Below are positions 5,171 to 61,692 of a stretch of 64,000 bases of DNA, one piece after another. Below the pieces are notes generated by a model, which did no database searches, had not been told where the DNA came from, and was given only the letters and a program-made list of their open reading frames with translations. Within the stretch, counting starts at the first letter, position 1. Each line of letters starts with the position of its first letter. The stretch comes from an uncultured bacterium (lineage in GTDB: Bacteria; Armatimonadota; Abditibacteriia; Abditibacteriales; Abditibacteriaceae). The stretch spans positions 2,170,001-2,234,000 of the forward strand of contig CAWJLW010000006.1 in the NCBI GenBank assembly GCA_963843795.1, read 5' to 3'. Made by a program: the position numbers and the translations under genes.

Positions 5171-7522
5171 TTATTTATCGAAGCGAAAAGCGCGCAATCG
5201 CAGCGCGTTGGTCACAACGCTGACGCTTGAAAGCGCCATTGCTAAAGACGCGAAAATGGGAGTCAGCATCCAGCCGGTAAACGGGAACAAAACGCCCGCT
5301 GCGAGCGGAATACCAAGCACGTTATAAATGAACGCGAAAAACAAGTTTTGACGCACGTTACTGATAGTGGCTTTTGAAAGGGCAATCGCATTGGCGACCC
5401 CGTGCAAATCGCCGCGCACGAGCGTAATATCGGCGGCTTCTATCGCCACGTCGGTTCCGCTACCCATCGCAATGCCGATGTCAGCACGAGCCAGTGCGGG
5501 CGCATCATTGATGCCATCGCCGACCATCGCGACGACTGAACCTTGGTTTTGCAATTTTTCGATTTCTGTCGCTTTATCTTCGGGCCTCACTTCGGCGCGC
5601 ACATTTGCGGCCTCAATTCCGACTTGCTGCGCGACGGCGCGCGCAGTGCCCACGTTATCGCCGGTCAGCATCACGACTTTCAAACCCAGTTCGCGCAAAT
5701 TTCCAATCGCGGCTTTGGACGATTCTTTGGGCGCATCGGCAATCGCGATAATGCCCGCGTATTCGCCATCAAGCGCGACGAAAACCGGCGTTTTGCCCTG
5801 CTCGGCTAAACGCTGCGCGACGCTTTCATCGGGCGTGATCTTTTGGTCTCGCATCAGGCGCGCATTGCCCGCAAGTACTTGCACAGCGCCCACACGTGCC
5901 TGCAGACCTCCGCCGGTAATCGATTGAAAATCTTGTGGCGTTTCCAATTCCAATTCCCGCAGACGTGCTGCTTCGATCATCGCTTCGCCCAAAGGATGTT
6001 CGCTCGATTGTTCGGCGCTCGCCGCCAATTGCAAAAGCTCATTTTCATCGCGGCCATTTGTCGGACAAATATCGGTAACTTCGGGCTGTCCGCGCGTGAT
6101 GGTGCCAGTTTTATCGAGAACAATCATATCCAAGCGGTGGGCGGTTTCCAGTGCTTCGCCGCCTTTAATGAGAATTCCGTTTTGCGCACCGCGACCGGTT
6201 CCGACCATAATCGCCGTCGGCGTCGCCAAACCCAGCGCGCACGGGCAAGCGATAATCAGCACGGAAACGAAAGTCAAAAGCGCCATTGTCAGGCGACTTG
6301 CGGGCGGCGTGAAATCGAACCAGACGACAAACGTTGCAATCGCCACGCACAAAACGACGGGCACAAAGACGCCGGAAATTGTGTCGGCCAAGCGCTGAAT
6401 TGGTGCTTTGGAGCCTTGCGCTTCCTGCACCATGCGCACGATCTGCGACAAAACCGTGTCGCTTCCCACTTTGGTCGCACGCATGCGGAAAGCGCCAGTT
6501 TTGTTCAGAGTCGCACCAATCACCACATCGCCAGTTTTCTTGGCGACCGCAATCGCTTCGCCGGTCAGCATTGATTCGTCAATTTGCGAACTGCCGTCGA
6601 TAATTTCGCCATCGACCGGCACTTTTTCGCCCGGTCTCACCAGAATGGTATCGCCGATTTGCACGTCGTCCAACGCCACATCAAGCGTTTTTCCGTCGCG
6701 TTCGACGCGCGCGGTTTTAGCTCCCAAATCCATCAATGCGCGAATTGCACCACCAGTTTGTGCGCGCGCCCGCGCTTCCAACAATCGGCCCATCAAAATT
6801 AGCGTGATGACAATCGCCGAAGTCTCGAAATAGACATTCGGCCCCGCCATTCCCTCACGCGCCATGTCGCTTGCCGGTGCGCTTTGCGCCATTACCAGTT
6901 GCGGCGCGACCGTTGCCACCACGCTAAACGCCCACGCGCTAAACGTGCCAATCGCGACCAACGTGTTCATATCCGCTGCACGATGGCGCGCCGCTTTGTA
7001 AGCACCGCTGAAAAATTCTGCGCCCGCACCAAACAGCACTGCGCCCGACAAAAACAGTTCAAACCACAGCCGCCAACTCGCGTTTGCCAGACCGTGAAGC
7101 GCGGGAATTAAATGGCTGCCCATCGCCGTAAATGTAACTGGCAGTGTGAGAAGCAAAGCCAGCCAGAATTTATTTTTCTGCTTTTGATAAGCCGCTTCGC
7201 GCGCCTGAGTTTCCGCATCGACTTCGTCGTTTTTCTGCTTTGCAGTTTGTGGAGTGCCATCAGCGTTTTGTTCCGGCAAAAGCGCATCGTAACCGGCATC
7301 TTTCACCACGTCGCGCAAATGGGCGGCGTCGGTTTCTGAGGCATCGTAATGCACAGTCGCGCGCGTCGTAGCGAAATTGACGCTGCAACTTTCAACGCCC
7401 GGCGCTTTGTTCAACGCGCGCTCGATGCGATTCGCACACGCTGCGCAACTCATGCCCAACAAGGGCAGCTCGATGCGCGCACGTTGTTCTTTCGTCGCAA
7501 GTTCCTTCATGGTTTCACTCAT
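5171..7522 (-). CDS. copA: Cu(I)-translocating P1B-type ATPase
   Basis: GMSCAAC HMA domain, [34 protein letters not shown] and MALSS motifs. Start set at ATG 7522 because the ORF-track extension overlaps csoR. Confidence 0.95.
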
Positions 7523-7528
7523 AATGAT

Positions 7529-7545
7529 ATACCCCCATAGGGTAT
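7529..7545 (-). promoter_or_regulatory. CsoR operator upstream of copA
   Basis: Minus strand ATACCCTATGGGGGTAT: the G/C-tract pseudo-palindrome typical of CsoR sites, 6 nt before the copA ATG and adjacent to csoR. Confidence 0.85.
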
Positions 7546-7596
7546 CAATTTTGATGCCACGATGGTTCGTAGGTTCCCGCAAGTACTTGCACGGCT

Positions 7597-9643: not shown

Positions 9644-10450
9644 TTAAAATTGTTTTGAGTAGCCAGCGATGAACTTCAGCGCCGAACGCCCGCGTCCGCC
9701 GGTCAGGTCGCTTTTAAAGCCGATGTCGAAAACGCTATCGACGGTGACTTGTTGGCGCATTCCGATGCCGACATTAAAAATGCCGCTCTGCCCGCGTTTG
9801 GGATTGGCGCGCAACGCGACTTGCGCCAGCAAAGTGCGATTGAAGCTAGTCGGATAGCCAATAGGTTTGGAATAACCCACAATCGCGCCCGGCAAGTACT
9901 TGCGCTCGCCATTGGACGCACTATTGTTGAGGCCCAAGTCGATATTGAGATGCAGGCGCGCATACTGTTGAAACTGGCGCGACGCGATGCCGCGCAAACG
10001 AAAATCGACGCCGCTGCTGTCGCGTCCGGTCGGCAAAAACGCATCGACGCGCGCGCCCAAAGCCGGAACGTTGCCATACTCACGATTAAAGTTGTGCAAC
10101 ACCCCAACACTTAAATCGCCGTTATCGAAACGCCGATTGCCGTTCTGCGCGCGCCCGTATTGCGGATCGATTCCAACGCTGAAATGCGTGTTGGGCGCGA
10201 AGCCACTGAGAAATTCCAGCGCGCCCGCTGCATTGACATCGCCACCCGAACTCACATCCAGAGCGCCGCCCACATCAAGCGCGCGCTCGCGATACGCGAT
10301 GGCCTGCGCATCATCGAAATCCAAGGGACGACCGGCGTCGATGTTGTTGTGATCGACAGCGCGCGCGGCGGGCGCAAAGGCCGTGCAAGTACTTGCAGCG
10401 ATTGTAGCGATTAATATGAAATGTGACGATTTCGGCAGGAGCATTTTCAT
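9644..10450 (-). CDS. Putative outer-membrane beta-barrel protein
   Basis: Signal peptide; alternating beta-strand pattern; FLPTG motif; terminal ...GYSKQF. Start overlaps the upstream stop (ATGA). Confidence 0.65.
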   Translation of the reverse strand: MKMLLPKSSHFILIATIAASTCTAFAPAARAVDHNNIDAGRPLDFDDAQAIAYRERALDVGGALDVSSGGDVNAAGALEFLSGFAPNTHFSVGIDPQYGRAQNGNRRFDNGDLSVGVLHNFNREYGNVPALGARVDAFLPTGRDSSGVDFRLRGIASRQFQQYARLHLNIDLGLNNSASNGERKYLPGAIVGYSKPIGYPTSFNRTLLAQVALRANPKRGQSGIFNVGIGMRQQVTVDSVFDIGFKSDLTGGRGRSALKFIAGYSKQF

Positions 10451-22887: not shown

Positions 22888-22933
22888 TTTCTGGCAGCAA
22901 GTACTTGCAGGGCGCAAAACGCAAAAACTGGCG

Positions 22934-23749
22934 ATGATTTCCCCAACCGAAACACTCATTCGTCCGATTCGCACCGTGCGGGCGACTCGTTATGTCACGC
23001 CGCTGCGCGAAGGAGGCTCGCTACCCGCGATCATCGAGGCCGATGACGATGGCACGTATGTCGTGAAATTCCGTGGCGCGGGGCAGGGAGCCAAAGCGCT
23101 AATCGCGGAACTGGTCGCCGGTGAAATCGCGCGTTATCTGGGCTTGCCAATTCCCGAAATCGTGTTTCTGGAAGTGCCGGTTGAACTGGGTCGCAACGAA
23201 GCCGACCCCGAAATCCGCGATTTGCTCAAGGCCAGCGTCGGACTCAATTTAGCACTGGATTATCTGCCCGGTTCGATGAGTTACGATCCACTTGTCAGCC
23301 GCTCGATTCGTCATCAACAAGGCCTGGCTTCGCGTATCGTGTGGTTCGATGCGTTCGTTACCAATATCGACCGCACGCCTCGCAACACCAATTTGCTGGT
23401 CTGGCACGAGCGCCCTTATCTGATCGATCACGGCGCAGCGCTGTATTTTCATCACAGCTGGGACAATTATTTAGAGCGCGCCAAAACGCCTTTTCCCGCC
23501 ATCAAAGATCACGTTTTGCTGCCTTTAGCCGATGAAATTACTGCCGCCGATGCCGAACTTGCACCGCAATTAACGCGGCAAGTACTTGCAAATGTGTTGC
23601 AATTGATTCCTGAGAACTGGCTGGGAACTGAATCCCAGTTTGCGGATGACCAGTCGCATCGCGCAGCCTATTTGGAGTGGTTTTTGACGCGTTTGCAGGA
23701 GCCGCGCGAGTGGATGGAGGAGGCGAAACGTGCCCACGATCTGGTTTGA
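22934..23749 (+). CDS. HipA-like kinase
   Basis: REGGSLP, YVVKFRGAGQG, NIDRTPRNTN, LIDHGA. Confidence 0.85.
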   Translation: MISPTETLIRPIRTVRATRYVTPLREGGSLPAIIEADDDGTYVVKFRGAGQGAKALIAELVAGEIARYLGLPIPEIVFLEVPVELGRNEADPEIRDLLKASVGLNLALDYLPGSMSYDPLVSRSIRHQQGLASRIVWFDAFVTNIDRTPRNTNLLVWHERPYLIDHGAALYFHHSWDNYLERAKTPFPAIKDHVLLPLADEITAADAELAPQLTRQVLANVLQLIPENWLGTESQFADDQSHRAAYLEWFLTRLQEPREWMEEAKRAHDLV

Positions 23750-25437: not shown

Positions 25438-25475
25438 AAAAAAGCGCTCTGCAAGTACTTGCAGAGCGCTTTTTT
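25438..25475. terminator. 38-bp perfect palindrome; bidirectional terminator between convergent genes
   Basis: AAAAAAGCGCTCTGCAAGTACTTGCAGAGCGCTTTTTT. Confidence 0.85.
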
Positions 25476-33506: not shown

Positions 33507-33551
33507 AAGACAAAACACCCTGCAAGTACTTGCAGCCCCGATAAAGGTAAA

Positions 33552-33585
33552 GAAAACGCCCTGCAAGTACTTGCAGGGCGTTTTC
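33552..33585. repeat. 34-bp perfect palindrome between sbcD and sbcC
   Basis: GAAAACGCCCTGCAAGTACTTGCAGGGCGTTTTC, preceded by a partial copy whose core starts at 33522. Confidence 0.9.
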
Positions 33586-36906: not shown

Positions 36907-39091
36907 TCATTGCTTCGACAAGGCCACAAACTTTGGCGTTGCGGGCAAAAGAATCGCGGCTTTCAATGGCGCTAAAGTCACTTTCACTGTCACGTTTTCT
37001 ATTTTCATGCGTTGTCCCGATAAGCCATCGACTAAATTAGTTGGCTTTACGAGATTTTTCGGCAGCGTAATTTCTATAGTTTGCGATTCTATCCGAACGA
37101 TTAAGGGCGATAATCGCGGTTTCATTATTCAACGTGCGCGCATACGCCAGAGTTTGCGCATTGTCATCGGTTTTGAGAATTGTCGGTTCGCCCGCTTGCA
37201 AAGCCACGCTGGCATTACGCAGGGCGATTAACCGTTTGTAGTAACGCAGCATCGTGTTGTCGGGCGTGTTCAAATCCCAGCGCATTCCGCGCCGATTATC
37301 GGGATCATTGCCGCCTTCCATGCCCAATTCTTCGCCATAATAAATCGAAGGCGCGCCAACCCAAGTGAACTGAACCGTGGTCGCCAAGCGATGCAAATCT
37401 TGATTGTTATTGCAAACCGTCAAGAAGCGCGCTGTATCGTGACTGCTCAGTAAGTTCAACATGTTGCGCGATACTTGCGGTACATAACTGGTATAGATTT
37501 GCATCAATCGATTGGCGAATTGCGTGGGCGAGCTTTTGCTTTCGGCGAAGAAATCGCGGTTGGCGAACAAGAACTGATAATTCATCGCCGCATCCCACTG
37601 ATCGCCTTTGAGCCACGGCGACGCATCGCTCCAACGCTCGCCGACAATCCACATTTGCGAATCCAAACCTTTAACACGCGTGCGTAAGGCGCGCCAGAAA
37701 CGCATATCCACTTCATCGGCCACATCAAGGCGCAAGCCGGACAGCGGAATCTGGCTCTTCCAATAATTGACCAGATTCAACATATAATCTTCTGTCGGCG
37801 GATTTGATAAATTCAATTTTGGCATCGCTGCGTAGCCATACCAAGCGACATAATTAGGTGGGTTTTCAACTTTCACCGGATACGATTTAATCGTGTACCA
37901 ATCTTTATATTTGGAAGCTGCACCTTTTTCGCGAATATCCATAAAAGGCGCAAACGTAGTGGCCGTGTGGTTGAACACGAAATCCATCACGGTGCGGATT
38001 TTATTGGCTTGCAGTTCTTTGCTCAGCGCGATAAATTCCGCGTTGGTACCGAATTGCGGGTCGATGGTTTTGAAATCTTCAGCATCGTAGCGATGATTGG
38101 AAGGCGATTTAAAAACGGGATTGAAATAAACGCTGGAAACGCCCAGTTTTTCCAGATACGGCAAGTGATCGCGCACGCCCTTCACATCTCCGCCCAGCCG
38201 CGAAAAACCATTTGGCGCGATATTCCACGGCTGCACATCGGGTGGATCGTTGGTTTTGTCGCCGTTGGCAAAGCGGTCGGGAAATATCTGATAAAAAACG
38301 GTGCGCTGCACCCAATCGGGCACCACAAATGGCTGAAATTTCCGAGCGTTCAATTGAAACGGCTTGACGCGCGCCATAGCGCCCAAACCATTGGCGCCGA
38401 ATTCTTGTGTCTGCGCGCCGTCTTTCACTTCAAAGCTATATTTCAAATCGCTTTTTCTATTCCACGGCAGTGTGACATTGTAGCGCGCATAGAGATCGTC
38501 GCTAGAAATCAGCTTCATTGAATAACGTCGCGCGCCGACTTTCAATGCCACGCTTTTGATGTCATCGGGCCGCGCACGCAACGAAAGCATGAGCTGGCCG
38601 CGATCATAGTTCAGATAAGGAATTTCAGTCTGATGCGATAAAGCGCTGCGCGCGGTAATGCCATCGTTGGGGCTGGCCGGTCGCGCATAATCGGCGGGCA
38701 AAATCATGAGCACGGAATTGGTGTATCCGCTGCTATCGGTTTCGTTTTTCGCCGCTTTGGGATCGACAATCCAGTTATCGCCATTGAGCACAAATTTATA
38801 GAAATGCTTACCAAAGGCCACGGGAACTGTCGCGCGCCAGATTTTACCTGCGGCGTCGCTCGTCATCGGGTTGGCGTCTTTGTTCCAATTGTTGAACGTG
38901 CCAGCGACGTTTACCGCAGAAAGCTTGGTCGGCGATTCGTAAATAAAAACGTGTTGTTCCGCTTCTGCAAGTACTTGCTGCGCAGCAGGTGCGTTCTGAG
39001 CGCGCGCCAGAGGTGCATTTAAAAGTGGGCTCCACAGTAAAGCAGCACAAAAAATCGACAACTTTTTATTCCATTGAATAGGATTGTTCAT
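36907..39091 (-). CDS. Exported GH13 alpha-amylase family enzyme (neopullulanase/cyclomaltodextrinase-like) with N-terminal CBM48-like domain; frameshift near the 3' end (in-frame stop at 37037)
   Basis: VAGTFNNW, YQIFPDRF, DFVFNH, GLRLDVA, GERW, SSHD, IYYGEE. The natural C-terminal beta-domain continues in another frame to 36907. Confidence 0.88.
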
Positions 39092-42025: not shown

Positions 42026-43618
42026 ATGAAAGAAAGTGAAGTGGCGAGTGGAATCACTTTTGGTCGTGAGCACGAGGAGCGCAGCGCATCGCGCGAGGCG
42101 TCGTTATTGGAGTGGCCGCTGTGGGATGACAGCCGCTGGCGGGTGGCGGCACTGCTCGTTGTGCTAATAGCGCTATTATTGCGCGGCTTGGTGTTAAGTT
42201 CACCGCTGGTTTTATCGGGCGATGCGCAGGCGCGCTATGTGCCGCTGGCGAGCAATTTGTGGCAAGGACATGGCTATTCGCGCCAATCGAGCGCGCCCTT
42301 TCGTCCCGATAGCTTCGACCAGCCGGGTTATCCGGCGTTTTTGGCGACGGCTCTGGATTTTGGGCGTGGCACTCTGGCTCTGGTTTCGCCGTTACAAATG
42401 GGGTTGGAAATCGCAATTGTCGGGCTAGTTTTCGCCATTGCTGGTGCGACGGGCTTGCCACGCGCCACGCGCTTGGGCGGGCTAGCGATCGCTTTACTCT
42501 GCCCATTTTTGCCCTTGTGGAGCGGACGCGCGATGACCGAAATTCTAACCACGTTTTGCTTGAGCGTTTTGTGTTGGCTGTGCGTACAGGCAGCGCGCGA
42601 TGACGAAGCAAGCGAGCGCAAAATTAAATGGTGGCTGTGTGCCGGAATCACGGGAGGCGCGTGTTTAATGGTGCGTGCCGATACCCTTCCAGCAGTCGGT
42701 TTGATGCTGTTAGCGAGCGCCATCGCCCAATGGTTTCACGAACGGCGGCGCGCTCGACGCTTGAATTTCGGGCTCAATCGATTTGGCGCGCGCACCGGCG
42801 ACGCGACGCGCGCGGCGAGCGGTTTCATAGTCGCGACATTAGCTTTGATGCTCGTAATGGTGCCGTGGACAGGGCGCAACTTCGGGGTTTTCGGTGAATT
42901 TTTGCCCCTCGGACGTGTGGGCGAACAGCAACGCAACGGTTATGTCGTGTGGCTGGGAACCTGGGTCGATGACACGCGCTATCACAAGCCGCTATGGTGG
43001 GACATTTTGAAGCCCGAACACGACATTCGCTTTCCCGTCGCCAAAATCACCGACCCGTTCGAGCGCCAAGTCGCGGTGCGCGGTGTGGAATTAGCGCGCA
43101 AACGTAAAATGTTCGCGGGCGATGCATCGCGGATATTTTTTAATTTGGCCGCACGCGCACGCGAGGAAAATCCACTGCTCGTGCGCGTGGTTGTGCCACT
43201 CAAACGCACTATAATGACGTGGCTGCGTATGCCCGATTACACGCCAATTACCGCCGTGCGCGGTTTCAAACGCGATCCCGCCCGACCGCACATTCCACGA
43301 CCGCACGAAGAATTTTTCATCGCTCTCATCGGCATCAGTTGGTATGCGCTGCTGATTTTCGCCCTCATTGGCATCGGACGCGCGATTTACCAACGCCGCT
43401 GGCTTTGCGCGCCGCTGCTGGGTTTAATTTTGGGACGCTCACTTCTGCCATTTGTCAGCGGCATCGGAACCGAACCGCGCTATATGATCGAAGCACTGCC
43501 TGCCGTATTCATTTTCGCCGCACTGGGCGCGACAACGATTTTGCATTTTTTAAGCTCAGGCCGCCAAAAGCCACTTAAAAGCATTCTGCAAGTACTTGCA
43601 GAACAATTGCAACGCTGA
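42026..43618 (+). CDS. GT-C fold membrane glycosyltransferase (PMT/ArnT-like)
   Basis: GDAQARY...PGYPAFLA...MTEIL...MVRAD...PWTGRN...EPRYM; many TM helices. Start uncertain. Confidence 0.7.
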   Translation: MKESEVASGITFGREHEERSASREASLLEWPLWDDSRWRVAALLVVLIALLLRGLVLSSPLVLSGDAQARYVPLASNLWQGHGYSRQSSAPFRPDSFDQPGYPAFLATALDFGRGTLALVSPLQMGLEIAIVGLVFAIAGATGLPRATRLGGLAIALLCPFLPLWSGRAMTEILTTFCLSVLCWLCVQAARDDEASERKIKWWLCAGITGGACLMVRADTLPAVGLMLLASAIAQWFHERRRARRLNFGLNRFGARTGDATRAASGFIVATLALMLVMVPWTGRNFGVFGEFLPLGRVGEQQRNGYVVWLGTWVDDTRYHKPLWWDILKPEHDIRFPVAKITDPFERQVAVRGVELARKRKMFAGDASRIFFNLAARAREENPLLVRVVVPLKRTIMTWLRMPDYTPITAVRGFKRDPARPHIPRPHEEFFIALIGISWYALLIFALIGIGRAIYQRRWLCAPLLGLILGRSLLPFVSGIGTEPRYMIEALPAVFIFAALGATTILHFLSSGRQKPLKSILQVLAEQLQR

Positions 43619-43632: not shown

Positions 43633-44940
43633 ATGTTTAATTTCTTTACACGCTTGCTATTGCCGGTTCTAATGCTGTCATCGGCAAAAGCACAAATCCA
43701 AGACGTTCAAATTCCGCAAGTCACGGTAACAGTTAATTCCCAACAACGCGAAAGCATCACTCGTTTGCAGTTGGGCATCACGCACACGCAGCGCGATTTG
43801 GATACCGTTGCGGCTCACGATAAGGAAACGTTGGCACGAGCCAAGAAGTTATTTTCGCGCGTAGTGAGTTATCAGAACGTGCATATTATGGGCTGGGGAA
43901 CGGATAACCCAAATCCGGCTCCGGGCGTCTACAATTGGGATTCGCTCGACCGCCGCATGGCAATGGTGCGCTCGATTGGCGCGATTCCGGTCATTACGCT
44001 GTGCGCCGCGCCCGATTGGATGAAAGGTGGCGCAGCGGGCAAAACCGATTGGAAAAATATCGAAGTCGCGCCCACGCCCGAACATTTCGCCGACTTTGCG
44101 AAATTAGCCGCGACTATCGCCCAACGTTATCCCGACGTTCAATACTTTCAAGTTTGGAACGAGATGAAAGGCTTGTGGAAAGCCGACATCAACAACTGGG
44201 ATGCCGTCGCCTACACCGATTTATACAACGCGTGTTACCGCGCACTGAAATCTGTTAACAAAAATATCAAAGTCGGCGGGCCATATTTGGTGATTGAAGG
44301 CACCGGCGGTGGCAAAACGCCTGAAAACGACGCCACGCGCGCGCCACTTTCGCCGCGCAATGCGCAATTCATTGATTACTGGCTAGCACACAAAACCGGT
44401 GCCGATTTCATTGTGCTCGACCGTGGCTTGCAAAGTTTTCACGACAAAAACCAATATACGCCCGATGAATTGATGCGTTTGACACTTCAATTCGGCAACG
44501 CCGCGCGCCAAATTCGCGCGAAAACTGACTTGCCAATTTGGTGGGCCGAGTATTATCCCAACATGTCTGGAGGCCCGCAGGCCATCGCCGCTTCACACGC
44601 CGCCACTCTGGCGCAAATGGCGCGCAATGTCAGCTCGGTCGCGCTGTTATGGCAGCCGATGGAAAGCGGCGAAATTCCCGCTGCGTTAATCTCCGATGTG
44701 CGCGTTGCTAACGGCGGGCGCGCTTTGCCGTTATGGGACGTGTATCGCATTTTTCACGATGATTTTCCGCCTGGCACAGCGTTCGTCGCCGCCACTTCAT
44801 CATCCGACGCGGTGCAAGTACTTGCCTCGCCCGAACGCACGCTGCTTATCAACACGACCGAGCAAACGTTCATCGCCAATGTCAATGGCGTACCTTACGC
44901 GCTGGGGCGTTATGATGTGCGCAGTATTCCCACGCCGTGA
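43633..44940 (+). CDS. Exported GH39-like glycoside hydrolase
   Basis: YNWDSLD, APDWM, FQVWNE, KVGGP, WWAEY. Confidence 0.75.
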   Translation: MFNFFTRLLLPVLMLSSAKAQIQDVQIPQVTVTVNSQQRESITRLQLGITHTQRDLDTVAAHDKETLARAKKLFSRVVSYQNVHIMGWGTDNPNPAPGVYNWDSLDRRMAMVRSIGAIPVITLCAAPDWMKGGAAGKTDWKNIEVAPTPEHFADFAKLAATIAQRYPDVQYFQVWNEMKGLWKADINNWDAVAYTDLYNACYRALKSVNKNIKVGGPYLVIEGTGGGKTPENDATRAPLSPRNAQFIDYWLAHKTGADFIVLDRGLQSFHDKNQYTPDELMRLTLQFGNAARQIRAKTDLPIWWAEYYPNMSGGPQAIAASHAATLAQMARNVSSVALLWQPMESGEIPAALISDVRVANGGRALPLWDVYRIFHDDFPPGTAFVAATSSSDAVQVLASPERTLLINTTEQTFIANVNGVPYALGRYDVRSIPTP

Positions 44941-45574: not shown

Positions 45575-45612
45575 AGAACTTCACGCTGCAAGTACTTGCA
45601 GCGTGAAGTTCT
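45575..45612. repeat. 38-bp perfect palindrome between divergently transcribed genes
   Basis: AGAACTTCACGCTGCAAGTACTTGCAGCGTGAAGTTCT. Confidence 0.9.
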
Positions 45613-45671: not shown

Positions 45672-47453
45672 ATGCCTGATTCTCCTCAAAAGCGTTCTGA
45701 AATTTCTGTATTCCATCGCTTGTGGCCTTATTTGCTGCCGCATCGCACCAAAATTTTCACTGGTTTTGCCCTGCTGTTGGTTTCGATTCCCGCCCAGAAC
45801 TTTCATCCCATCGTGTGGGCGTATATAGTCGATACCGTGATTGGAAAACAGCGCGTCGAAATGCTGTTGCCCGCCATCGTTGCTATGTTCGGCGTGCAGG
45901 CGCTGGGCACGGTTTTGGGCGCGTGGCGCAATAACATTCTGGAAAAAGTCGGGCAGGAAATGGTCTACGACCTGCGCAACCAAACCTACGCCAAATTACA
46001 GCGCCAATCTTTGAGCTATCATCACGATAATCGTTCCGGCGATTTAGTTTCGCGCACCATGGGCGATATTGATGTGTTGCAAGAAGTCGCAGTTCAAGGA
46101 ACCGATTCGATTGTCGCCAACGGACTGAGCTTTCTGTGGGTTGCAGGCGTTCTGGTTTCTTACAACTGGAAATTGGCGACGGCGACTCTGTTGCCAATTT
46201 TTCTGGTTGGCGTGCTCACCAAGTACTTCAACACGCGGGTCAAGGTGATTTATCGCGAATCGCGCGAACGTTTGGGCGATGTGAACGCGCGCTTGCAGGA
46301 AAATTTGCAGGGCTTACCACTGATAAAAGCTTTCGCACGCGAACCCTTTGAATCGGAGCGCTTTGGCAACGTCACGCGCGCGCATCGCGCGGTGCAATTT
46401 GAAGTCATTAACGCGCGCAATCTGTTCTTTCCGGCGGTGGGCTTTGTCGGTTTCTTTTCCAATATCATTTCGGTTGGCTTTGGCGCGTGGCTGGTTTTGC
46501 AGGGCCAGTTTACGGTCGGCGGTTTAGTGCTGTATCGCGGTTACTGGTGGCCCTTGTTCGCACCGATTAACCAGTTGGCCAATATCAACGAAATGTTGCA
46601 GCGCGCCCAAGCCGCTGGCGCGCGCGTTTTTGAAGTGATCGATGCGCCCGAAACCATTCAAGACGGCACGCAAGTACTTGCGTGGGGCGAAGGCCGCGTG
46701 CGCTTCGACCATGTTTCGTTCGCTTACAACGAGCGCACACAAACCCTGAATGACGTTTCGTTTGCAGTTGAACCCGGACAGATGATCGCACTCGCTGGCC
46801 CATCGGGCGCGGGCAAATCGACGGTTTTGAATTTGTTGCTGCGCTTCTATGATCCACTCGAAGGCAAAGTGTTAATCGACGAGCAAAACATTCGCGACGT
46901 GACGCAGCAAAGTTTGCGCGAAGGCATGGCGTTCGTGCCGCAAGAAGCGTTTCTCTTCAACGGTTCTATTGCCGATAACATCGCTTACGGTCGGCCCGAT
47001 GCGACACGCGCCGAAATGGAAAGCGCCACGCGAGCGGCCAATGCGCACGATTTTATCGCCGCTCTACCCGATGGTTACGACACCGAAATCGGCGAGCGCG
47101 GCCTGAAACTTTCGGGCGGGCAACGTCAACGATTGGCCATTGCGCGCGCCTTTCTGGCCGATCCGCAACTGTTAATTTTGGATGAACCCACAAGCGCCGT
47201 CGAAGCCGAAAGTGAAAGCATCGTGCAACAATCTCTCGAACGCTTGATGCGTGGCCGCACAACTTTCGTTACCAGTCACAGATTAAGTTTGATTCGCAAC
47301 GCCGATCTGATTTTGGTGTTCGATGGTGGCCAATTAATCGAACGCGGCACCCACGCGCAACTGCTGGAAAGCGAAGGCTTGTATGCTGGAATGTATCGTA
47401 TGCAAATGGGTTTGGACGAAGTGGCGCGTGAAGAATTAGCTTTTGAAGCCTAA
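45672..47453 (+). CDS. ABC exporter, fused permease/ATPase (MsbA/MdlB-like)
   Basis: TM domain followed by GPSGAGKS, LSGGQRQR, LDEPTS, SHRLS. Confidence 0.92.
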   Translation: MPDSPQKRSEISVFHRLWPYLLPHRTKIFTGFALLLVSIPAQNFHPIVWAYIVDTVIGKQRVEMLLPAIVAMFGVQALGTVLGAWRNNILEKVGQEMVYDLRNQTYAKLQRQSLSYHHDNRSGDLVSRTMGDIDVLQEVAVQGTDSIVANGLSFLWVAGVLVSYNWKLATATLLPIFLVGVLTKYFNTRVKVIYRESRERLGDVNARLQENLQGLPLIKAFAREPFESERFGNVTRAHRAVQFEVINARNLFFPAVGFVGFFSNIISVGFGAWLVLQGQFTVGGLVLYRGYWWPLFAPINQLANINEMLQRAQAAGARVFEVIDAPETIQDGTQVLAWGEGRVRFDHVSFAYNERTQTLNDVSFAVEPGQMIALAGPSGAGKSTVLNLLLRFYDPLEGKVLIDEQNIRDVTQQSLREGMAFVPQEAFLFNGSIADNIAYGRPDATRAEMESATRAANAHDFIAALPDGYDTEIGERGLKLSGGQRQRLAIARAFLADPQLLILDEPTSAVEAESESIVQQSLERLMRGRTTFVTSHRLSLIRNADLILVFDGGQLIERGTHAQLLESEGLYAGMYRMQMGLDEVAREELAFEA

Positions 47454-48302: not shown

Positions 48303-49274
48303 ATGAGGATGATGCAGCGAAAAACATACAAGCAGAAAAAATTACCACCGGTCGAACTGCCGGAAAATTTCGCGCGGTTTCAGGTCGGCTGCGTGCCGCT
48401 GCAATATGGCAGTTTTCGTCAGAAATCACCCGACGATTGGCCGGAAGAACGTGTACTCCGCGAAGTCGCATATGCTGGTTACGCGGGAATCAGCGCCGGG
48501 CCACGCAAAGAGATGACGCCGGCACAAACGGTTCTCTTTTATCGCGACTTCAATCTCGATGTCGCGCCGACTTACTTCGGTGGAAACTGGTGGAAAGTGG
48601 AAGAGCGCGAAAAAGCCATTGAGCGCGCTAAATTCCTCGGCGATTACTGCGCGCAAATGGGGCTGCGCGAACTGTTCGTTTCCGCTGGCGGATTTGGCGA
48701 CTACGTTTCGCGCCGCAACGGTAAGACGCGTGCAGAACTTTCCGGTCAGGTGCAAAGTGAAGACGGTTTAACGGAAGAGGAATGGCAGATCTTGGCAGAC
48801 ACACTCAATGCGATTGGCGAAGCTACCATGAATAGCGGCGTGCGCGCGTGTTATCACAATCACGTCGCCGCAGTCGTGGAAACACGCGAAGAAATGGAAA
48901 AGTTGCTTTCGCTGACCGACCGCGACAAAGTGTGGCTCGGCCCCGACACCGGACATTTGCTGTGGGCCGGTGCTGATGTCACACAATTTTTTCGCGATTA
49001 CGCGCCACTGATTAAAAGCGTGCATCTCAAAGATGCTTCCCAGAGCGTGCGCGAAAAAGGCGTCGAGAAAGAGTGGGATTACAACGAATTTAGCAAAGCA
49101 GGTATCTGGCGCGAACTCGGAGAAGGCGATATTGATTTTCCGGCTCTCATCGAAATTCTACGCGACCAAGATTTCGATGGCTGGCTTTTGTGTGAGACCG
49201 ATGTCACGCAAAAAGACACCCCGATGGAAAGCGCGCAAATTAATCGCAAGTACTTGCACGAACTGGGAATTTAA
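48303..49274 (+). CDS. Sugar phosphate isomerase/epimerase TIM barrel (IolE-like)
   Basis: YHNH, DTGH, VHLKD, ELGEG, WLLCETD. Confidence 0.85.
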   Translation: MRMMQRKTYKQKKLPPVELPENFARFQVGCVPLQYGSFRQKSPDDWPEERVLREVAYAGYAGISAGPRKEMTPAQTVLFYRDFNLDVAPTYFGGNWWKVEEREKAIERAKFLGDYCAQMGLRELFVSAGGFGDYVSRRNGKTRAELSGQVQSEDGLTEEEWQILADTLNAIGEATMNSGVRACYHNHVAAVVETREEMEKLLSLTDRDKVWLGPDTGHLLWAGADVTQFFRDYAPLIKSVHLKDASQSVREKGVEKEWDYNEFSKAGIWRELGEGDIDFPALIEILRDQDFDGWLLCETDVTQKDTPMESAQINRKYLHELGI

Positions 49275-49285: not shown

Positions 49286-49317
49286 AAAGCGTGCTGCAAG
49301 TACTTGCAGCACGCTTT
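49286..49317. repeat. 32-bp perfect intergenic palindrome within an operon
   Basis: AAAGCGTGCTGCAAGTACTTGCAGCACGCTTT. Confidence 0.9.
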
Positions 49318-50378: not shown

Positions 50379-50413
50379 AAAGCGCCCTGCAAGTACTTGC
50401 AGGGCGCTTTTTT
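50379..50413 (+). terminator. 32-bp perfect palindrome with U-tail
   Basis: AAAGCGCCCTGCAAGTACTTGCAGGGCGCTTTTTT immediately after a stop codon. Confidence 0.8.
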
Positions 50414-51536: not shown

Positions 51537-51572
51537 TAAAAGCGCTTTGCAAGTACTTGCAAAGCGCTTTTA
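51537..51572. terminator. 36-bp perfect palindrome after a stop codon
   Basis: TAAAAGCGCTTTGCAAGTACTTGCAAAGCGCTTTTA. Confidence 0.75.
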
Positions 51573-51633
51573 GGTTTCTATACCCGCAAGCACGATTGCA
51601 ACGAAAAACTGGTAACGCAGTCGAAGCTTGGCT

Positions 51634-54600
51634 ATGAAAAGTCCGTATGTTGGTCTTGCTATCGGCATCACTTTAACCGCAAGCGCATTGGCGCAAGCGA
51701 TGCCATTTGCACTGCAAAAGTCCGATTCAAAGAGCGCTGCGTTGACTGAGCCATATGAAGCAACGCGCCACCGCCCACCGCCGTTTGGTGCGATTTCGTA
51801 TTACAATCAGCCGTGGCGCGGTTACATGGATACATGGCCCGCGGCCAAATTTCTGGGCGCGCTGGGTTCGCAATACAACGGACTGGATGCGAAAGTGGCC
51901 GCGCCTTTGTTTCAACTGATGGACGAAAGCGGCATCCGCAATTTGCGCGTGGAGATTGGTTGGAATAATTTAAATTGGAACGATGAAGTTGCACCCGACC
52001 GCAAAGAATATTTCACGCAAATCCTGCAACTGGCCAAAGCTCATCACATTCGACCGCTCATTCTGCTCAACGCCAATCACGGTGCGCCCGGCCCCATGCG
52101 CGAAGTGCGCGCTCAATTACGCTCCGATGCGCACAAAGGCGACCGTGCTCTTCAACTCGAACCCAACGCCGCGATTCGTCCCGGTTACACCGGACTGGGA
52201 CGTTTGCAAGACAACATCGCGGCTTTTCCTCTCATCACGAGTGTGCAAAACGATGGCACAGCGCAGCTTTCCGCACCTTTACCCAGCGATCTCAAAGCCG
52301 GACCAATTTCGCTGCTCGATTTGAAATATCAACCGTTTCAAGATGTGCAACTCAAAGATGGCACGCCAGTTCCCGCTTCAGCCGAAACATTTGAAGGTTG
52401 GCAGAAATACGCAGCGAATGTCGGCGCTTTTGTGCGCTCGATTGTGGGCACGCCCAAAGACGCGGGTTTCGATATTGAAGTGTGGAACGAGCAAACGTTT
52501 GGCTCCAATTTTCTCGACATCAACAACTATTACGAGCCAAAACGCGAATATGGACAGAAGTTCATCTATCGAAAAACCCGCGCGCGTACTGCGCAGATGA
52601 AGCCGGATGCCAAATTGGAGTTCGAGCAGCCGGGGTTTCAGCCCGACGCGGGCGGCAAAAGCGTGTATGCGATTTTGCCGATGACAATCGATTATTTCAG
52701 CGACGCCAGCCACCGTTTTCCCGGCGTTAAAGTAGTGAGCGGCTTTTCCAATCAGTGGCCGTGGGACGCTGGTTCGCTGCTGTGGCCGGGTCAGGCTGGC
52801 TTTTCGCGCCATTATTACAGCGGTGATTACGGTGATATCGGCCCAAACCATCCCGCCAACAGCGGCGATGCTATCGACGCAATGGGGCAGCGCGAAACGT
52901 CGCCTTTCGTGCCAACTTTTCATCTCGGATTTCCCGAATATTTTCAAAGCGGCTTCAAAACCGAAACCGCCGCGCGCGATTTGTTCCCGTCTTCACAAAA
53001 TATTGGCATCGGAGACACCGCGCACGGACGATTTACAGGTACGGGCGATTGGAAGCGCGCCGAATGGTGGGAAACCGAAACTGAATGGAATCGCGAGCAT
53101 TTTCTGCAAAACGTGCAGCGTGCAAGCGGTGTCTCTGAAAACGACCCGCGACTGCTGGCTTTGGTCAGGCACACGATTTCCAAAATGATGTTGCGTCAGG
53201 CATTGTTCAACCTTCACAAAGGTTTTGACCGCATTTATCTTTACAGCTTACAGTCCGAAACGTTGAATTACGGCCTGCTCACTCCCGATTTTTATCAAGC
53301 GCTCGAAGCCGATAATTATCAACTCACGCCCAGAGTGCTCGAGCTATTGCCTCAAGGCTGGAACAGTTGGAAATGGTTCACGCAGCTGATGGAAAGCGGT
53401 GAAAAAATCGATGCGCCGCGCGCATTGAACATAGCAGAATTAATCGAACATCAACCACGATTGGTTTTTGCGGGCGATGGCACGCCCGCGCATCCCGATG
53501 TTTACAATCGAGATTGGTTCGCGATGCTACCGATTCAACTTGGAGCCAATCGCTTCGCCATTCCCTATTATGTGGTTTCGCCTGACGCGATGCATGATTG
53601 GAACCCACAGAAAAATCCGCTCGATCCAACGCGCTACGACTTACCCGATCAGGATTTCGAGATCGTAATCGGAAACATTGCAGGTGCTGGTGCGAAAGTA
53701 TCGGTTTACGATCCGCTCACCAGCAAAACCATACCCGTCAAAGTACTTGGAGCGAACCAAAGCCGTGTGCGCGTCCAACTCAAAACCACCGATTATCCGC
53801 GCATTTTGCTTATCGACGAAGCTCAAGCCGGCCCACAAATCATCGCGCCGCACCTGGCGCTCAATGGAGACAATACGGCAACGCTCAGTTGGAAAACTAA
53901 TGTCCCTCTGAAATCGGCGCGCATTTTTTTTGGTAACGAGAGCAGCCATCGCGAAATACATGAAAGAGAAATAAAAGTCCAACCTAATCAGCGCGACTTC
54001 AAAGTCGAAATTCCGGCTGCTGGCGCCTCTCTGCTCGCCACGCGCATACGCGTGGCGGCGAACCACCTCGTTAATACTTGGCCACGCTGGAACGAAGATC
54101 CGCAAGGCCAAATCGTGCTACCAAACGCCATCGCGAAAGCTAAACTCCCATCTTCGTCCGAAAAACCCACGCTAATTGATGCACCCAAAACCCCACTCAA
54201 TGCCTTGACTTCACCCGCAGACATTGCACTTCCCGTAACTGAAGCCAACGTAGTGCGCGGTTACAGTTTGCGCGTGCCACGAGACGCGCAATTGTCGGGT
54301 CCAGAGGATGATCGTGAAATGACTCTGGGCAATGGGGCGAATACCGTAACTTTGAGAGCGCGCTGGATGGAAAACGGCGCGAAAAACCCAGCCAGATATT
54401 TGCCCGTGACCGCAGTCGGCGACACTAACCAAACGTCCCGTGTCATTCTGCCTTCGCGCTTGGAAGCAAATCTTTCGGAGTATCGACTGGCAGCCACCTC
54501 ACATCCCGACATCAAAGATTTAACCCGCAAGTACTTGCAAGTAGTAAATGGTCCCAACCACGCCGATTTGCTGGTTTTATCCGCCACCGGCACAGCTCAA

Positions 54601-54672
54601 GCGATGGCGCGATGGGAGCCGACAATTATGGCAATATTTGCCAGCTTACAGCAAACGAAACCAGCGCTTTGA
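51634..54672 (+). CDS. Large exported protein, possible clan GH-A glycoside hydrolase with extra C-terminal domains
   Basis: Signal peptide; LRVEIGW, IEVWNE, SRHYY and WWETE are spaced like a (beta/alpha)8 GH-A fold. Confidence 0.55.
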   Translation: MKSPYVGLAIGITLTASALAQAMPFALQKSDSKSAALTEPYEATRHRPPPFGAISYYNQPWRGYMDTWPAAKFLGALGSQYNGLDAKVAAPLFQLMDESGIRNLRVEIGWNNLNWNDEVAPDRKEYFTQILQLAKAHHIRPLILLNANHGAPGPMREVRAQLRSDAHKGDRALQLEPNAAIRPGYTGLGRLQDNIAAFPLITSVQNDGTAQLSAPLPSDLKAGPISLLDLKYQPFQDVQLKDGTPVPASAETFEGWQKYAANVGAFVRSIVGTPKDAGFDIEVWNEQTFGSNFLDINNYYEPKREYGQKFIYRKTRARTAQMKPDAKLEFEQPGFQPDAGGKSVYAILPMTIDYFSDASHRFPGVKVVSGFSNQWPWDAGSLLWPGQAGFSRHYYSGDYGDIGPNHPANSGDAIDAMGQRETSPFVPTFHLGFPEYFQSGFKTETAARDLFPSSQNIGIGDTAHGRFTGTGDWKRAEWWETETEWNREHFLQNVQRASGVSENDPRLLALVRHTISKMMLRQALFNLHKGFDRIYLYSLQSETLNYGLLTPDFYQALEADNYQLTPRVLELLPQGWNSWKWFTQLMESGEKIDAPRALNIAELIEHQPRLVFAGDGTPAHPDVYNRDWFAMLPIQLGANRFAIPYYVVSPDAMHDWNPQKNPLDPTRYDLPDQDFEIVIGNIAGAGAKVSVYDPLTSKTIPVKVLGANQSRVRVQLKTTDYPRILLIDEAQAGPQIIAPHLALNGDNTATLSWKTNVPLKSARIFFGNESSHREIHEREIKVQPNQRDFKVEIPAAGASLLATRIRVAANHLVNTWPRWNEDPQGQIVLPNAIAKAKLPSSSEKPTLIDAPKTPLNALTSPADIALPVTEANVVRGYSLRVPRDAQLSGPEDDREMTLGNGANTVTLRARWMENGAKNPARYLPVTAVGDTNQTSRVILPSRLEANLSEYRLAATSHPDIKDLTRKYLQVVNGPNHADLLVLSATGTAQAMARWEPTIMAIFASLQQTKPAL

Positions 54673-54691: not shown

Positions 54692-54725
54692 AAAAGCGCG
54701 CTGCAAGTACTTGCAGCGCGCTTTT
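54692..54725. terminator. 34-bp perfect palindrome; bidirectional terminator between convergent genes
   Basis: AAAAGCGCGCTGCAAGTACTTGCAGCGCGCTTTT. Confidence 0.85.
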
Positions 54726-55752: not shown

Positions 55753-55859
55753 TTTCATTCCTTTCAAATCAAACGCTTAAATCAAACGCCCTGCAAGTAC
55801 TTGCACAAGTACTTGCAGGGCGAAAACTTTTGAATTTCTTCTCTGCGATGGAAGTTCAA

Positions 55860-57773: not shown

Positions 57774-57780
57774 GTTGCGC

Positions 57781-59235: not shown

Positions 59236-59319
59236 CTAATTTCCCCTATCCTCAAAGAAAATCGCCCTGCAAGTACTTGCGTAAGTGCTTGCAGGGCGAA
59301 AGTTTGCATCACTGATGTT

Positions 59320-59841
59320 TCAGGGATAATTCTTGGCGTCGTTGCCATAACGCCAAAAGCGTTCATGACCGATTTGCGTCATCGGGCGGCCATTGGTTTC
59401 ATCGGCGCGCACGCCGACAAAGCCCAGCGATTGTTTACGCGTCGGACGCACGCGGCGCACGACTTCGCGCCCACCTTTGATTTCCTTCGGCGTGCCGCAC
59501 GAGCCGGTCGCTTTTTGCAACGTGCCACCGATGTGATAGGTTTCGCGTTCGATGCTGAGAATCAGGTGGTCTTTTTCAACGCGCCAGCGCCCATTCCAAC
59601 CGCGCAAGCGCGACTGACAATCCATCTGGCTGGCGTGGAAATGGACGCGGCCATTGGTGTAGAAACGATAGGTTTGCGCCCAGCCCGCCCCCATCGCGGG
59701 CGCAGCTTGCCACACACCAACCAAAGCCGCGCTATTGGCTTTTCTGGCTGGCTTGCGCTTCACGGTTTTAGCACTGGCCGCGTGCATCGCGACCACAGCC
59801 AACGCGCTCAATGTCAGACCTGTTAGGAAATTCCATCGCAT
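59320..59841 (-). CDS. Exported hypothetical protein
   Basis: GGAGG RBS before ATG 59841; signal peptide; LVGVW...YRFYTNG...GRWRV beta-rich pattern. Confidence 0.65.
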   Translation of the reverse strand: MRWNFLTGLTLSALAVVAMHAASAKTVKRKPARKANSAALVGVWQAAPAMGAGWAQTYRFYTNGRVHFHASQMDCQSRLRGWNGRWRVEKDHLILSIERETYHIGGTLQKATGSCGTPKEIKGGREVVRRVRPTRKQSLGFVGVRADETNGRPMTQIGHERFWRYGNDAKNYP

Positions 59842-59901
59842 TTTCGCACCTCCACTGTCACCAACTTTGTATCGCACTTACATCACACAGTTTACTACCA
59901 A

Positions 59902-61692
59902 CTATTTCCCCAACACCGCGCGATAGTTGAAACGGTCGTTGGGCGCGACATCGCCGTTAAGAGTGAAGTCGCGGGCTGAACCATCGCCCACGATGCCATC
60001 GGCCCATTTGAAATCGATAGTTTGCGCATTTGCACCGAAAATCCAGCGTGGAATTGCGATTTCCATTTCGTTGCCGCGATAAGCGCTTTTCAATCTGCGG
60101 CCTTTGTTCCATTGATATTGATTCTTCAAATTGGCGGCGATTTCGGCAGTTTGGCCATCTGCGCTGTAGCTGACACGGAAATCGTAGCCCAGCCATCCGG
60201 TTTGCGGATTGTTGTCTGCATCAAGGAACAGACACATCCAGTTTTTATCCGGTGCGCTCAAAGCGTTTAGTGTTTGTACATAGAAATACGCACTGTGCGT
60301 GTCATAAGAAACTTTTGCGTTGAAAATATCGTTGCGGCCCGTAGAATTTTTGTAAACGATGTCGGCCCAACCGGGATGATCGCGCCGCGCAGGATCACCC
60401 AGAGTGTCGCGAAATTCGGGCGCGGCCCGCTGCCAGTCGGTGAAGTCGCCGTCGATGCGAATCGGTGTCGCAAGTACTTGCCCGGCTTCACGCGCGCCTT
60501 TGTATTGGCGGATAAACGTGTGCAGTTGATAGAGATAGTTATCTGCAATTTTTCCATTCACGGGCTCAATGTCACGACTAAATTCTTCGTTGAAGGCATC
60601 GACGAAAAACGTGGCGCCAGTTTTTTGTGGCAATCCGGCGAAAATTTCATCTTTTTTCGAGGTGAAGCGCTGAGCAATCCATTCGTTCCAACCGGTGACA
60701 AAAACCAAAGGCGGATCGACATCCAAAGCGTGCTGCATTTGCTCGGTGAAATACAAGCCCTGTCCGGCTGTGGGCGTCAGATGGAATTTATCGACTGGCG
60801 GTTCTTTGCCGTTTTGATAGGAACGCCCAATAGAAGTTGTGGCGTGCTGCGCCGTCGCCACGCTGATGGCTTCGGGTTTATCGGGCGCATCGTGCCATCC
60901 GAACTTTTGCGGCGAATGGTCGAGCCACGGCCACTTGTCTTTGCCATCGCCGAACCAACTGCCCGCCGACCATGCCCACGAACGGCGAATCGTAAAATAA
61001 TCTTGCGCTTCGGGCGGCAGCTTGCCCAAATCAACTTCTGGCTTTAGCAAAAATAGCGGCTTAATTTGGCCCCTATCGTCGGGCCATTGAAACCATAAAT
61101 CTTGGAATAGAGATTTCGAATAGAACTCTTTCCATAAAGTTTCCGCCGCGCCTTGATTGGGAAAGAACGCGATAGAAGGCGTTTTCACACCTTGCGCGCG
61201 CATCGCAGCAAATTCGCGGCAAATCGCGGTGTAAACCGTCGGATAGGTCAAGCCGTTGGTGTTATCGAAGAAAAGGACATCGACACCGGCATCGCTCAGC
61301 ATTTGCGCGTGCTTGCGAATGATATACGGATCGTCATTGCGATAATAGCCAAACCACGGCTCGCCCCACCAGTGAAAAGCGCCCTCGCCACCATATTTTG
61401 GAGCATCGGGATCGGCAGCAAGAATTTTCGTAATGTCGAAAATAGGACGACTTTTCTCGCCCTGCCAGAGAAAATAAAACATTCCGACTGTGCGATTGGG
61501 TTTGGGCGGCCCAACATAAGCGCCCGTTGGCACTGCACGTCCCAACGCATCGGTCGCCACCCACGTATCGGCCATCACGTCGCGCGTCGGCATTTGGTTT
61601 TGGGGATTGGCATTGGCATTTTGCAATGCCCAAAAAGGCAGACCAGCACCCAAAATCGTGGCTGTCAAGGTTTTGCGAAAAAAACTTTTCAT
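59902..61692 (-). CDS. Exported GH99/GH71-like TIM-barrel protein with C-terminal beta-sandwich
   Basis: VGMFYFLW, HWWGEPWFGYY, RKHAQMLSDAGVD, VTGWNEW, FSRDIEP, IRIDGDFTDW. Confidence 0.6.
   Translation of the reverse strand: MKSFFRKTLTATILGAGLPFWALQNANANPQNQMPTRDVMADTWVATDALGRAVPTGAYVGPPKPNRTVGMFYFLWQGEKSRPIFDITKILAADPDAPKYGGEGAFHWWGEPWFGYYRNDDPYIIRKHAQMLSDAGVDVLFFDNTNGLTYPTVYTAICREFAAMRAQGVKTPSIAFFPNQGAAETLWKEFYSKSLFQDLWFQWPDDRGQIKPLFLLKPEVDLGKLPPEAQDYFTIRRSWAWSAGSWFGDGKDKWPWLDHSPQKFGWHDAPDKPEAISVATAQHATTSIGRSYQNGKEPPVDKFHLTPTAGQGLYFTEQMQHALDVDPPLVFVTGWNEWIAQRFTSKKDEIFAGLPQKTGATFFVDAFNEEFSRDIEPVNGKIADNYLYQLHTFIRQYKGAREAGQVLATPIRIDGDFTDWQRAAPEFRDTLGDPARRDHPGWADIVYKNSTGRNDIFNAKVSYDTHSAYFYVQTLNALSAPDKNWMCLFLDADNNPQTGWLGYDFRVSYSADGQTAEIAANLKNQYQWNKGRRLKSAYRGNEMEIAIPRWIFGANAQTIDFKWADGIVGDGSARDFTLNGDVAPNDRFNYRAVLGK

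Follow-up and report, generated by a model that had tools for sequence, protein, structure and literature searches.

The stretch of DNA analysed here (the window: 64,000 nt, positions 2,170,001-2,234,000 of contig CAWJLW010000006.1, assembly GCA_963843795.1) belongs to an uncultured member of the Abditibacteriaceae and carries many copies of a 12-letter palindrome, GCAAGTACTTGC. The genome under study (G000; 4.30 Mb in 11 contigs) is 92% complete. In the window the palindrome is present 43 times, and 0 of 100 shuffles gave any copy; 23 copies are intergenic and 20 fall within the longest open reading frames (ORFs). Fifteen of these 20 had been listed in a preliminary description of the window, and each listed position does begin a perfect copy, with the strand and frame correctly given. 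The 12-mer, as had also been noted, is free of stops in every frame and reads ASTC, QVL(A) or KYL. The gene labels were only partly confirmed: copA, sbcC, the glycoside hydrolase (GH) 13 gene, the ATP-binding cassette (ABC) gene and the IolE-like gene were recovered with NCBIfam, whereas the genes labelled kinase, glycosyltransferase, GH39 and GH99 had no NCBIfam match. The remaining in-ORF copies lie near N-termini (22897 and 40284) or upstream of gene-caller starts (3219, 7579 and 61716). The copies in the window are as follows.

5871..5882, minus strand: 12-mer in copA, QVLA frame; 13 orthologues, all gap-free at these codons
9892..9903, minus strand: 12-mer in gene 9644-10450, RKYL frame; ungapped against L372 (RKVQ)
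10385..10396, minus strand: 12-mer at codon 19 of gene 9644-10450, ASTC frame; from position and frame, no covering homologue
22897..22908, plus strand: extra in-ORF copy near an N-terminus; start codon uncertain
23578..23589, plus strand: 12-mer in gene 22832-23749, QVLA frame; from position and frame
30364..30375, plus strand: 12-mer near the N-terminus of gene 30154/30319-32181, ASTC frame; from position and frame
34748..34759, plus strand: 12-mer in sbcC, QVLA frame; from position, frame and NCBIfam
35260..35271, plus strand: 12-mer in sbcC, RKYL frame; from position, frame and NCBIfam
35285..35296, plus strand: 12-mer in sbcC, QVLA frame; from position, frame and NCBIfam
38967..38978, minus strand: 12-mer in the GH13 gene, QVLA frame; from position, frame and NCBIfam
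40284, minus strand: extra in-ORF copy near an N-terminus; start codon uncertain
43588..43599, plus strand: 12-mer near the C-terminus of gene 42026-43618, QVLA frame; from position and frame
44814..44825, plus strand: 12-mer in gene 43633-44940, QVLA frame; from position and frame
46670..46681, plus strand: 12-mer in the MsbA-like ABC gene, QVLA frame; G000 has no insertion here, and its side of the alignment shows a 2-residue gap just upstream
49246..49257, plus strand: 12-mer in the IolE-like C-terminus, RKYL frame; ungapped against RNYL, RHYL, REYL and REFL
54527..54538, plus strand: 12-mer in gene 51628-54672, RKYL frame; from position and frame
60470..60481, minus strand: 12-mer in gene 59902-61692, QVLA frame; from position and frame
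25438..25475: hairpin, perfectly palindromic, with the 12-mer at 25451 as its centre, 5' A tract and 3' T tract, between convergent genes; intrinsic-terminator-like, z -6.35
33552..33585: terminator-like hairpin with 33563 as its centre; another copy lies at 33522; z -6.91
45575..45612: hairpin with perfect arms of 13 bp and its centre at 45588
49286..49317: terminator-like hairpin centred on 49296, judged from sequence
50379..50410: terminator-like hairpin centred on 50389; z -5.85
51537..51572: hairpin of terminator-like form with its centre at 51549, judged from sequence
54692..54725: terminator-like hairpin centred on 54703; z -4.37
746, 815, 3219, 4712, 7579, 13359, 15588, 17458, 18480, 21614, 26544, 29106, 36846, 41918, 55793, 56942, 59269, 61716: other copies, intergenic or upstream of a start
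4317..4329: 13-mer GCAAGTTACTTGC, the 12-mer interrupted at its centre by one additional base, probably through an assembly error

Across G000 the 12-mer was found 2,567 times, against 0.45 expected under an order-4 model, and none of its one-off variants exceeds 68 on one strand. With the gene set from our own gene caller (3,362 genes, 86% coding), 1,027 copies are genic, 1,509 are intergenic and 31 sit on edges, and 808 genes carry at least one copy. The approximately 1,030 genic copies are read as QVLA (604), xKYL (233) or ASTC (193). Since 296 of the 1,030 are in the first 30 codons, where starts may have been mis-called, the peptide test was redone on gene interiors. There, QVLA occurred 449 times against 29.6 expected (15-fold; 400 motif-coded), KYL 257 times against 89.7 (about 3-fold; 162 motif-coded) and ASTC 103 times against 2.9 (35-fold; 88 motif-coded); from codon usage alone the motif-coded share of QVLA would be 0.4%. 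Synonymous shuffles of the genes gave 7-17 copies rather than about 1,030. The proteome of G000 is bent toward the DNA word. The peptides and their codon string are over-represented, with most of the excess in motif codons, and the earlier proposal that selection or molecular drive acts on the word itself is upheld by the synonymous shuffles and by the keeping of these codons in kin, described below.

The coding copies were compared with relatives obtained by a metagenome scan. This gave 117 loci, of which 12 with little or no similarity to G000 were set aside; the 72 loci above 1 kb that were used total 1.23 Mb with some overlap, have a GC content of 61-71% and contain CAAGTACTTG at a density of about 0.94 per kb. 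In 429 alignments of at least 50% identity, with kin at 67% amino acid identity, 90 sites of G000 were covered: 71 were ungapped, 7 were gapped in G000, and the relative lacked one or two residues at 8 and three or more at 4. Background windows were ungapped in 91% of cases and had a gap of at least three in 1.5%. Judged from these alignments, the coding sites are somewhat gap-prone, yet they are not four-codon inserts. At 34 of the 71 ungapped sites the core 10-mer was retained, compared with 2.1% identical windows in the background. Where the residue was conserved, the codon itself was also kept far more often at sites than in the background (CAA, 29/35 against 296/1679; GTA, 22/37 against 30/479; CTT, 25/43 against 89/912). 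Of the sites compared with motif-free genomes 8 of 12 were ungapped, and of those compared with genomes that have another form, or dialect, of the word, 23 of 34. Four of the 15 sites listed earlier had homologue coverage (5871, 9892, 46670 and 49246) and 11 were without a homologue in hand. At the copA site (5871) all 13 orthologues are gap-free at the four codons, 12 of them spanning the full flank and one aligning only from just upstream; at the same place two dialect genomes have their own or nearly their own dialect (CAAAGTACTT in G001 and GCGTACTCG in G009). At the IolE-like site (49246) all 4 homologues are ungapped. Point substitution rather than insertion had been suggested for these two sites, and the alignments agree, both there and across the 90 sites. 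At permissive codons the word arises by point substitution, and its synonymous positions are conserved in kin.

Between genes the word is denser, at 249 copies per 100 kb versus 28 in genes (9-fold; approximately 59% of copies are intergenic). Perfect arms of at least 6 bp together with flanking A and T tracts were found for 497 copies, most of these terminator-type copies lying 10-40 bases past a stop, and this type accounts for 189 of the 287 copies that lie between convergent genes. The description of the word as unlike repetitive extragenic palindromes (REPs) or terminators has to be given up on these figures. Perfect palindromes of at least 22 bp are centred on AAGTACTT in 643 cases, and the runner-up centre has 15. 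When folding was compared with shuffles, four hairpins of the window gave z values of -4.37 to -6.91 and the copA copy gave -0.07. Coding copies need no hairpin, since an extended arm is missing at 409 of the 609 interior copies. About 500 copies appear to have been co-opted as terminator hairpins; such co-option is a described trait of the DNA uptake sequence (DUS) (PMC12616744).

On the large contig the density is flat (98-144 copies per 200 kb). Nearest-neighbour spacing of the copies is more regular than in a null matched by compartment (coefficient of variation 0.89 versus 1.17 +/- 0.02). With distance to other copies, up to 3 kb, interior density climbs from 16-18 to 26-43 per 100 kb. 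Genes at 45-70% identity carry 26 copies per 100 kb, and those above 70% carry 10-13; 16S rRNA has zero copies. The two longest copy-free gaps (26 kb each) are an insertion sequence-rich island with transposases and a type I restriction-modification island. In-gene flanks are AT-rich at +/-9-11 (0.58 and 0.56 versus 0.45). Occasional copies are tandem or overlapping, 10-13 bp apart. Within the window, 55793-55820 and 59269-59296 hold tandem or overlapping partial copies at a 13-base offset (GCAAGTACTTGCACAAGTACTTGC), and the large contig has 22 neighbour pairs of copies less than 14 bp apart.

The exact 12-mer has 0-3 copies in each of 40 relatives. Word-bearing genomes make up 7 of the 31 in the class Abditibacteriia, each with one word at 0.6-1.0 per kb (0.75-1.03 in four kin), and their dialects share a GTAC core: (C)AAAGTACTTT(G) in G001, TCGAGTACTCGA in G009, G015 and G019, GAGTACTC in G012 and TCGACCGTAC in G006. 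The word is palindromic in G000 and five others and non-palindromic only in G006, where it occurs 2,981 times (1,508 on the plus and 1,473 on the minus strand). Of 180 copies sampled in G006, 114 are in inverted, head-to-head pairs with A and T tracts, and single copies from 13 loci show no strand bias (33 plus, 33 minus). AGTACT exceeds 2,800 copies in 6 of the 31 class genomes. RAGTACTY exceeds 2,600 in 5 of 401 genomes of the phylum, all within two motif-bearing genera, and reaches at most 481 elsewhere; G001, being below the completeness limit, is outside this count. A quick RpoB tree (30 rows, family base without resolution) needs 3 changes for the word and places motif-free G017 as sister of G012. 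In 11 motif-free genomes, of which 29-84 kb each were sampled, no word was seen at dialect density. Genomes of genera g2 and g5 are often nearly GTAC-free (0-1 per 20-40 kb versus 75-155 expected). Extreme avoidance of GTAC or AGTACT was seen in G005, G008, G011, G014, G042 and G022, of motif-free sister genera; G005 has one AGTACT in 6 Mb, and most GTAC-avoiding genomes keep the orphan methyltransferase described below. Sparser dispersed repeats, at 0.15-0.3 per kb, contain CAGCCACG in motif-free G007 and G016 and are CCAAGCTCACCC-like in G017, and metagenome locus L251 mixes the AGTACT variants CAAAGTACTTTG, GCGAGTACTCGC and GCAAGTACTTGC, perhaps a looser or intermediate dialect.

Candidate machinery was sought in the same genomes. 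G000 has ComEC, ComEA, DprA and a type IV pilus operon, as well as 43 prepilin-like genes, mostly of the DUF1559 type. In four motif-bearing and two motif-free genomes or contigs the pil operon is laid out alike, and its pilins are neutral to acidic. In G000 it (G000:C6:385800-402500; L345, L421) carries several frameshifts, which look like assembly errors because, in a close strain, the short-read contigs do not have four of the extra bases and frameshifts were found at 30 sites among about 608 loci tested. The densest 3-kb clusters of the motif held ordinary genes where annotated. MutH was found in 0 of 5 genomes, motif-bearing genomes have MutL just as motif-free ones do, and no C5 or Dam-type methylase was found in the 92% complete G000. 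Ssn proteins are usually short; the GIY-YIG matches were two long proteins (open frames of 672 and 450 aa), unlike these, and were rejected.

The only PF01555 gene in G000 (G000:C6:2517368-2518135) is an orphan N6/N4 methyltransferase, conserved at 56-75% across the family in shifting neighbourhoods. Its best solved match is M.RsrI (E 1.6e-36), and homologue names are generic. The assignment of the genome to the Abditibacteriaceae is supported by the enzyme's named relatives. All 7 motif-bearers and 13 motif-free family members have it; it is broken in 2 and was not found in 5. Near homologues from other phyla GTAC is under-represented (Markov observed/expected 0.14-0.81), but CTAG, GGCC or GATC is often as low. 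In genus g2 the ratio of AGTACT to control is 0.002-0.045 in the 6 genomes with an intact methyltransferase versus 0.035-0.31 in the 5 without, with exceptions on both sides (G025, without the gene, at 0.027; G003, G004 and G017, with it, at 0.20-0.24). The hints that GTAC is its putative site are weak and mixed. A further signal came from GCAAGTAACTTGC or its complement, which occurs 66 times in G000 (window 4317-4329 and 65 more), whereas other central insertions occur at most twice. These insertions are never deep in a gene, are at frameshifts when genic, and hit pilD and two other genes; the core of GCAAGTAACTTGC has 0 occurrences in 1.2 Mb of kin, and the signal was not replicated in G009. 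They are probably a systematic sequencing error in the assembly, at a base that may be modified.

Several known systems resemble this word, and the likeness to both the highly iterated palindrome HIP1 and DUS first proposed for it was supported. DUS and uptake signal sequences (USS) of Neisseriaceae and Pasteurellaceae (PMC12616744, PMC7811141, PMC2817400) are described as words of 9-12 bp in hundreds to thousands of copies at about one per kb, arising by point mutation and forming clade-following dialects with a conserved core; G000 has such a copy number, and its word shares the density, origin and dialects. Further likenesses are the inverted-pair terminators (in G006, on sequence and folding), the scarcity of copies in rRNA, in new DNA and in conserved genes (phage-like contigs, which are dense, being the exception), a proteome imprinted with the word's peptides, flanks rich in AT like those of USS, and competence machinery, present in G000 but not specific to motif-bearers. 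The pattern in G006 is a near copy of that of DUS. The Abditibacteriaceae differ in phylum and in word, in mostly palindromic dialects, in a word that is dense on phage-like contigs, and in a stronger imprint (QVLA 15-fold and KYL about 3-fold versus tripeptides roughly doubled in the cited accounts); no ComP- or ComN-like receptor was found in the pil operons compared, and the likeness in uptake itself is a presumed one. HIP1 and its alternates (PMC4390886, PMC5861425, PMC13756078, bioRxiv 10.1101/2024.09.10.611283) are likewise described as a palindrome iterated about once per kb, within genes and non-randomly spaced, in genomes with an orphan methyltransferase and with alternative words in some species. 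The cyanobacterial HIP1, GCGATCGC, is a GC-rich 8-mer, however, and the Abditibacteriaceae word an AT-centred 10-12-mer with a GTAC core, 9-fold enriched between genes, heavily used in terminators and non-palindromic in one dialect; G000 lacks a detected C5 or Dam-type methylase, and its one-off variants are not end-biased (positions 4/9 are commonest, with 127, and the ends total 110). The tag may work like DUS/USS and HIP1 but fits neither, because the word is mostly palindromic, the HIP sequence and end-biased variants were not found, and the likeness in uptake is presumed. RAATTY of Campylobacter jejuni (CtsM; PMC10046745) is a palindromic, methylase-linked transformation signal and a precedent for methylation-gated reading, but is a common 6-mer found every ~60 bp (bioRxiv 10.1101/2024.09.10.611283) rather than an enriched 12-mer with putative methylation.

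The reading that we prefer, with a probability of roughly one half, is that the word is a lineage-specific DNA-uptake or self-recognition tag of the DUS/USS kind, fixed by molecular drive and possibly methylated by the family-wide orphan methyltransferase. If DNA is taken up or recombined through a step that discriminates by sequence, word-bearing fragments would be favoured, point mutations toward the word would spread by transformation, and the drive would saturate once limited by protein constraint and by a density of about one copy per kb. The orphan enzyme may methylate the GTAC core, and recognition may depend on that mark, as has been reported for RAATTY in C. jejuni (PMC10046745) and for HIP1. 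We prefer biased uptake with recombination because it would explain substitution origin, even spacing, depletion, AT flanks, terminators and dialects together. A number of observations weigh on the other side. Most dialects are palindromic, whereas USS is described as not so (PMC12616744). ComEC is present in 30 of the 31 class genomes, and pili with ComEC are equally common in motif-free kin; no dialect-specific pilin was seen in the pil operon of five genomes and one metagenome contig, nor a dialect-specific domain in ComEA of G000 and the two dialect genomes viewed (9 of 26 loci, including G000, G009, G015 and G019, are outside the ComEA alignment). The methyltransferase, with its putative GTAC specificity, is shared with the 13 motif-free family members. 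Interior copies are slightly clustered (82 versus 62 +/- 10 within 300 bp). Primase-bearing, phage-like contigs carry the word at host density or above, 0.6-1.4 per kb: L226 has 17 copies in 12 kb, with a tape-measure gene and all of the QVLA, KYL and ASTC frames, L239 has 5 in 5.4 kb and L217 has 3 in 4.7 kb, in what is a biased sample retrieved by motif search. Long-resident prophages could gain the word by transformation, but an intracellular reader is the simpler account of these contigs, which the evidence there favours. L226, L239, L217 and L206 are phage- or plasmid-like and probably mobile elements of a motif-bearing host; in a viral collection there were six single 16-mer matches, none dense, taken as chance.

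An intracellular self tag would be bound, on whatever replicon is resident, by a cytoplasmic protein such as a nucleoid organiser, a nuclease guard or a Chi-like, non-polar recombination stimulator, with about one site per kb kept by selection. Besides the dense phage- and plasmid-like contigs, the uniform density round the large contig fits this idea, and the symmetric word with its symmetric AT flanks would suit a dimeric DNA-bending protein. Chi sites, however, are non-palindromic and polarised on one strand, whereas the word is palindromic in G000 and the single copies of G006 are evenly split between strands, which excludes canonical Chi; matS and parS sites are regionally biased and the word is not; and the fast turnover of dialects, with loss in G017 and other genera, is hard to reconcile with an essential chromosome function. 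We consider such a tag unlikely, although by no means negligible. A methyl-directed repair ratchet, after Elhai's model for HIP, in which the orphan methyltransferase marks GTAC and a strand-choosing nicking step that needs the longer word fixes mutations toward it, would act on any replicon and would make sense of the GTAC kept in all dialects, of the conserved orphan as sole PF01555 gene, and of a density and gap filling that fit saturation at ~1 kb (PMC4390886); the 66 one-base insertions in GTAC also hint at a modified base. Set against this are the lack of MutH in the five genomes and the even distribution of MutL, one-off variants at all positions without preference for the ends, the non-palindromic G006 word, the many methylase-bearing kin nearly without AGTACT, and an insertion signal not seen in G009. 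This account seems to us improbable.

A further possibility is a terminator or hairpin signal acting primarily at the RNA level, with coding copies as spill-over. The 643 long palindromes on one centre, against 15 for the next, support it, as does a small excess of arms of at least 4 in gene interiors (30 versus 10), but most interior copies are without an extended arm, the copA copy folds no better than its shuffles, and synonymous conservation in kin requires selection or drive on the coding copies; we regard it as very unlikely. Least credible is a mobile, REP-like insert of the kind moved by REP-associated tyrosine transposases (RAYTs). Hundreds of intergenic palindromic hairpins, the occasional tandem or overlapping copies and one REP-type tyrosine transposase in G000 would all suit it, but 40% of copies are genic and arose via substitution, a gap of at least three residues was found at only 4 of 90 sites in kin (background 1.5%), and the orthologue alignments refute mobile insertion for the coding copies. 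The transposase, moreover, is flanked by its own GTAG hairpins, whose sequence differs from the word; it lies at G000:C6:751935-752500 (L302), followed by a pair of these unrelated repeats.

More tentatively, and in our view at well below even odds, the uptake tag may represent a third, independent family of uptake sequences, with a methylated GTAC core, mostly palindromic, DUS-like in one genome, and with approximately 800 proteins rewritten. HIP1, the Campylobacter methyl signal and DUS/USS would then be united in a single mechanism, which could be tested through naturally occurring gains, losses and shifts of dialect; sister genera would have purged GTAC almost completely, and phage-like elements would mimic or inherit the tag. 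In the cited accounts, dialect-forming uptake sequences are treated as a trait of Neisseriaceae and Pasteurellaceae and the function of HIP1 as still open. Our literature searches, which did not cover subscription journals or supplementary oligomer surveys, returned no description of the word or of an Abditibacteriaceae tag. One family offers motif-bearing and motif-free sisters, both types of dialect, a candidate methylase that they share and an imprint on the proteome that is unusually strong, and the builder and reader of highly iterated words thereby become testable by phylogenetic profiling and simple uptake assays. In practice, the word could separate resident from newly acquired DNA and assign metagenomic contigs and phages to hosts, and it may be needed for transforming Abditibacteriaceae.

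Apart from the word, an Rfam scan of the window gave two tRNAs and no other match; these genes lie at 28156-28228 and 41760-41833, both on the minus strand. Elsewhere in the genome, the 40-kb contig G000:C3 (L309, L310), the sparsest in motif, carries an extracellular contractile injection system cluster. The 100-kb contig G000:C4 (L313, L314), with genes for a replication initiator, ParA, an integrase and a large helicase, has a motif density 40% of that of the main contig and is probably a plasmid or integrative element.

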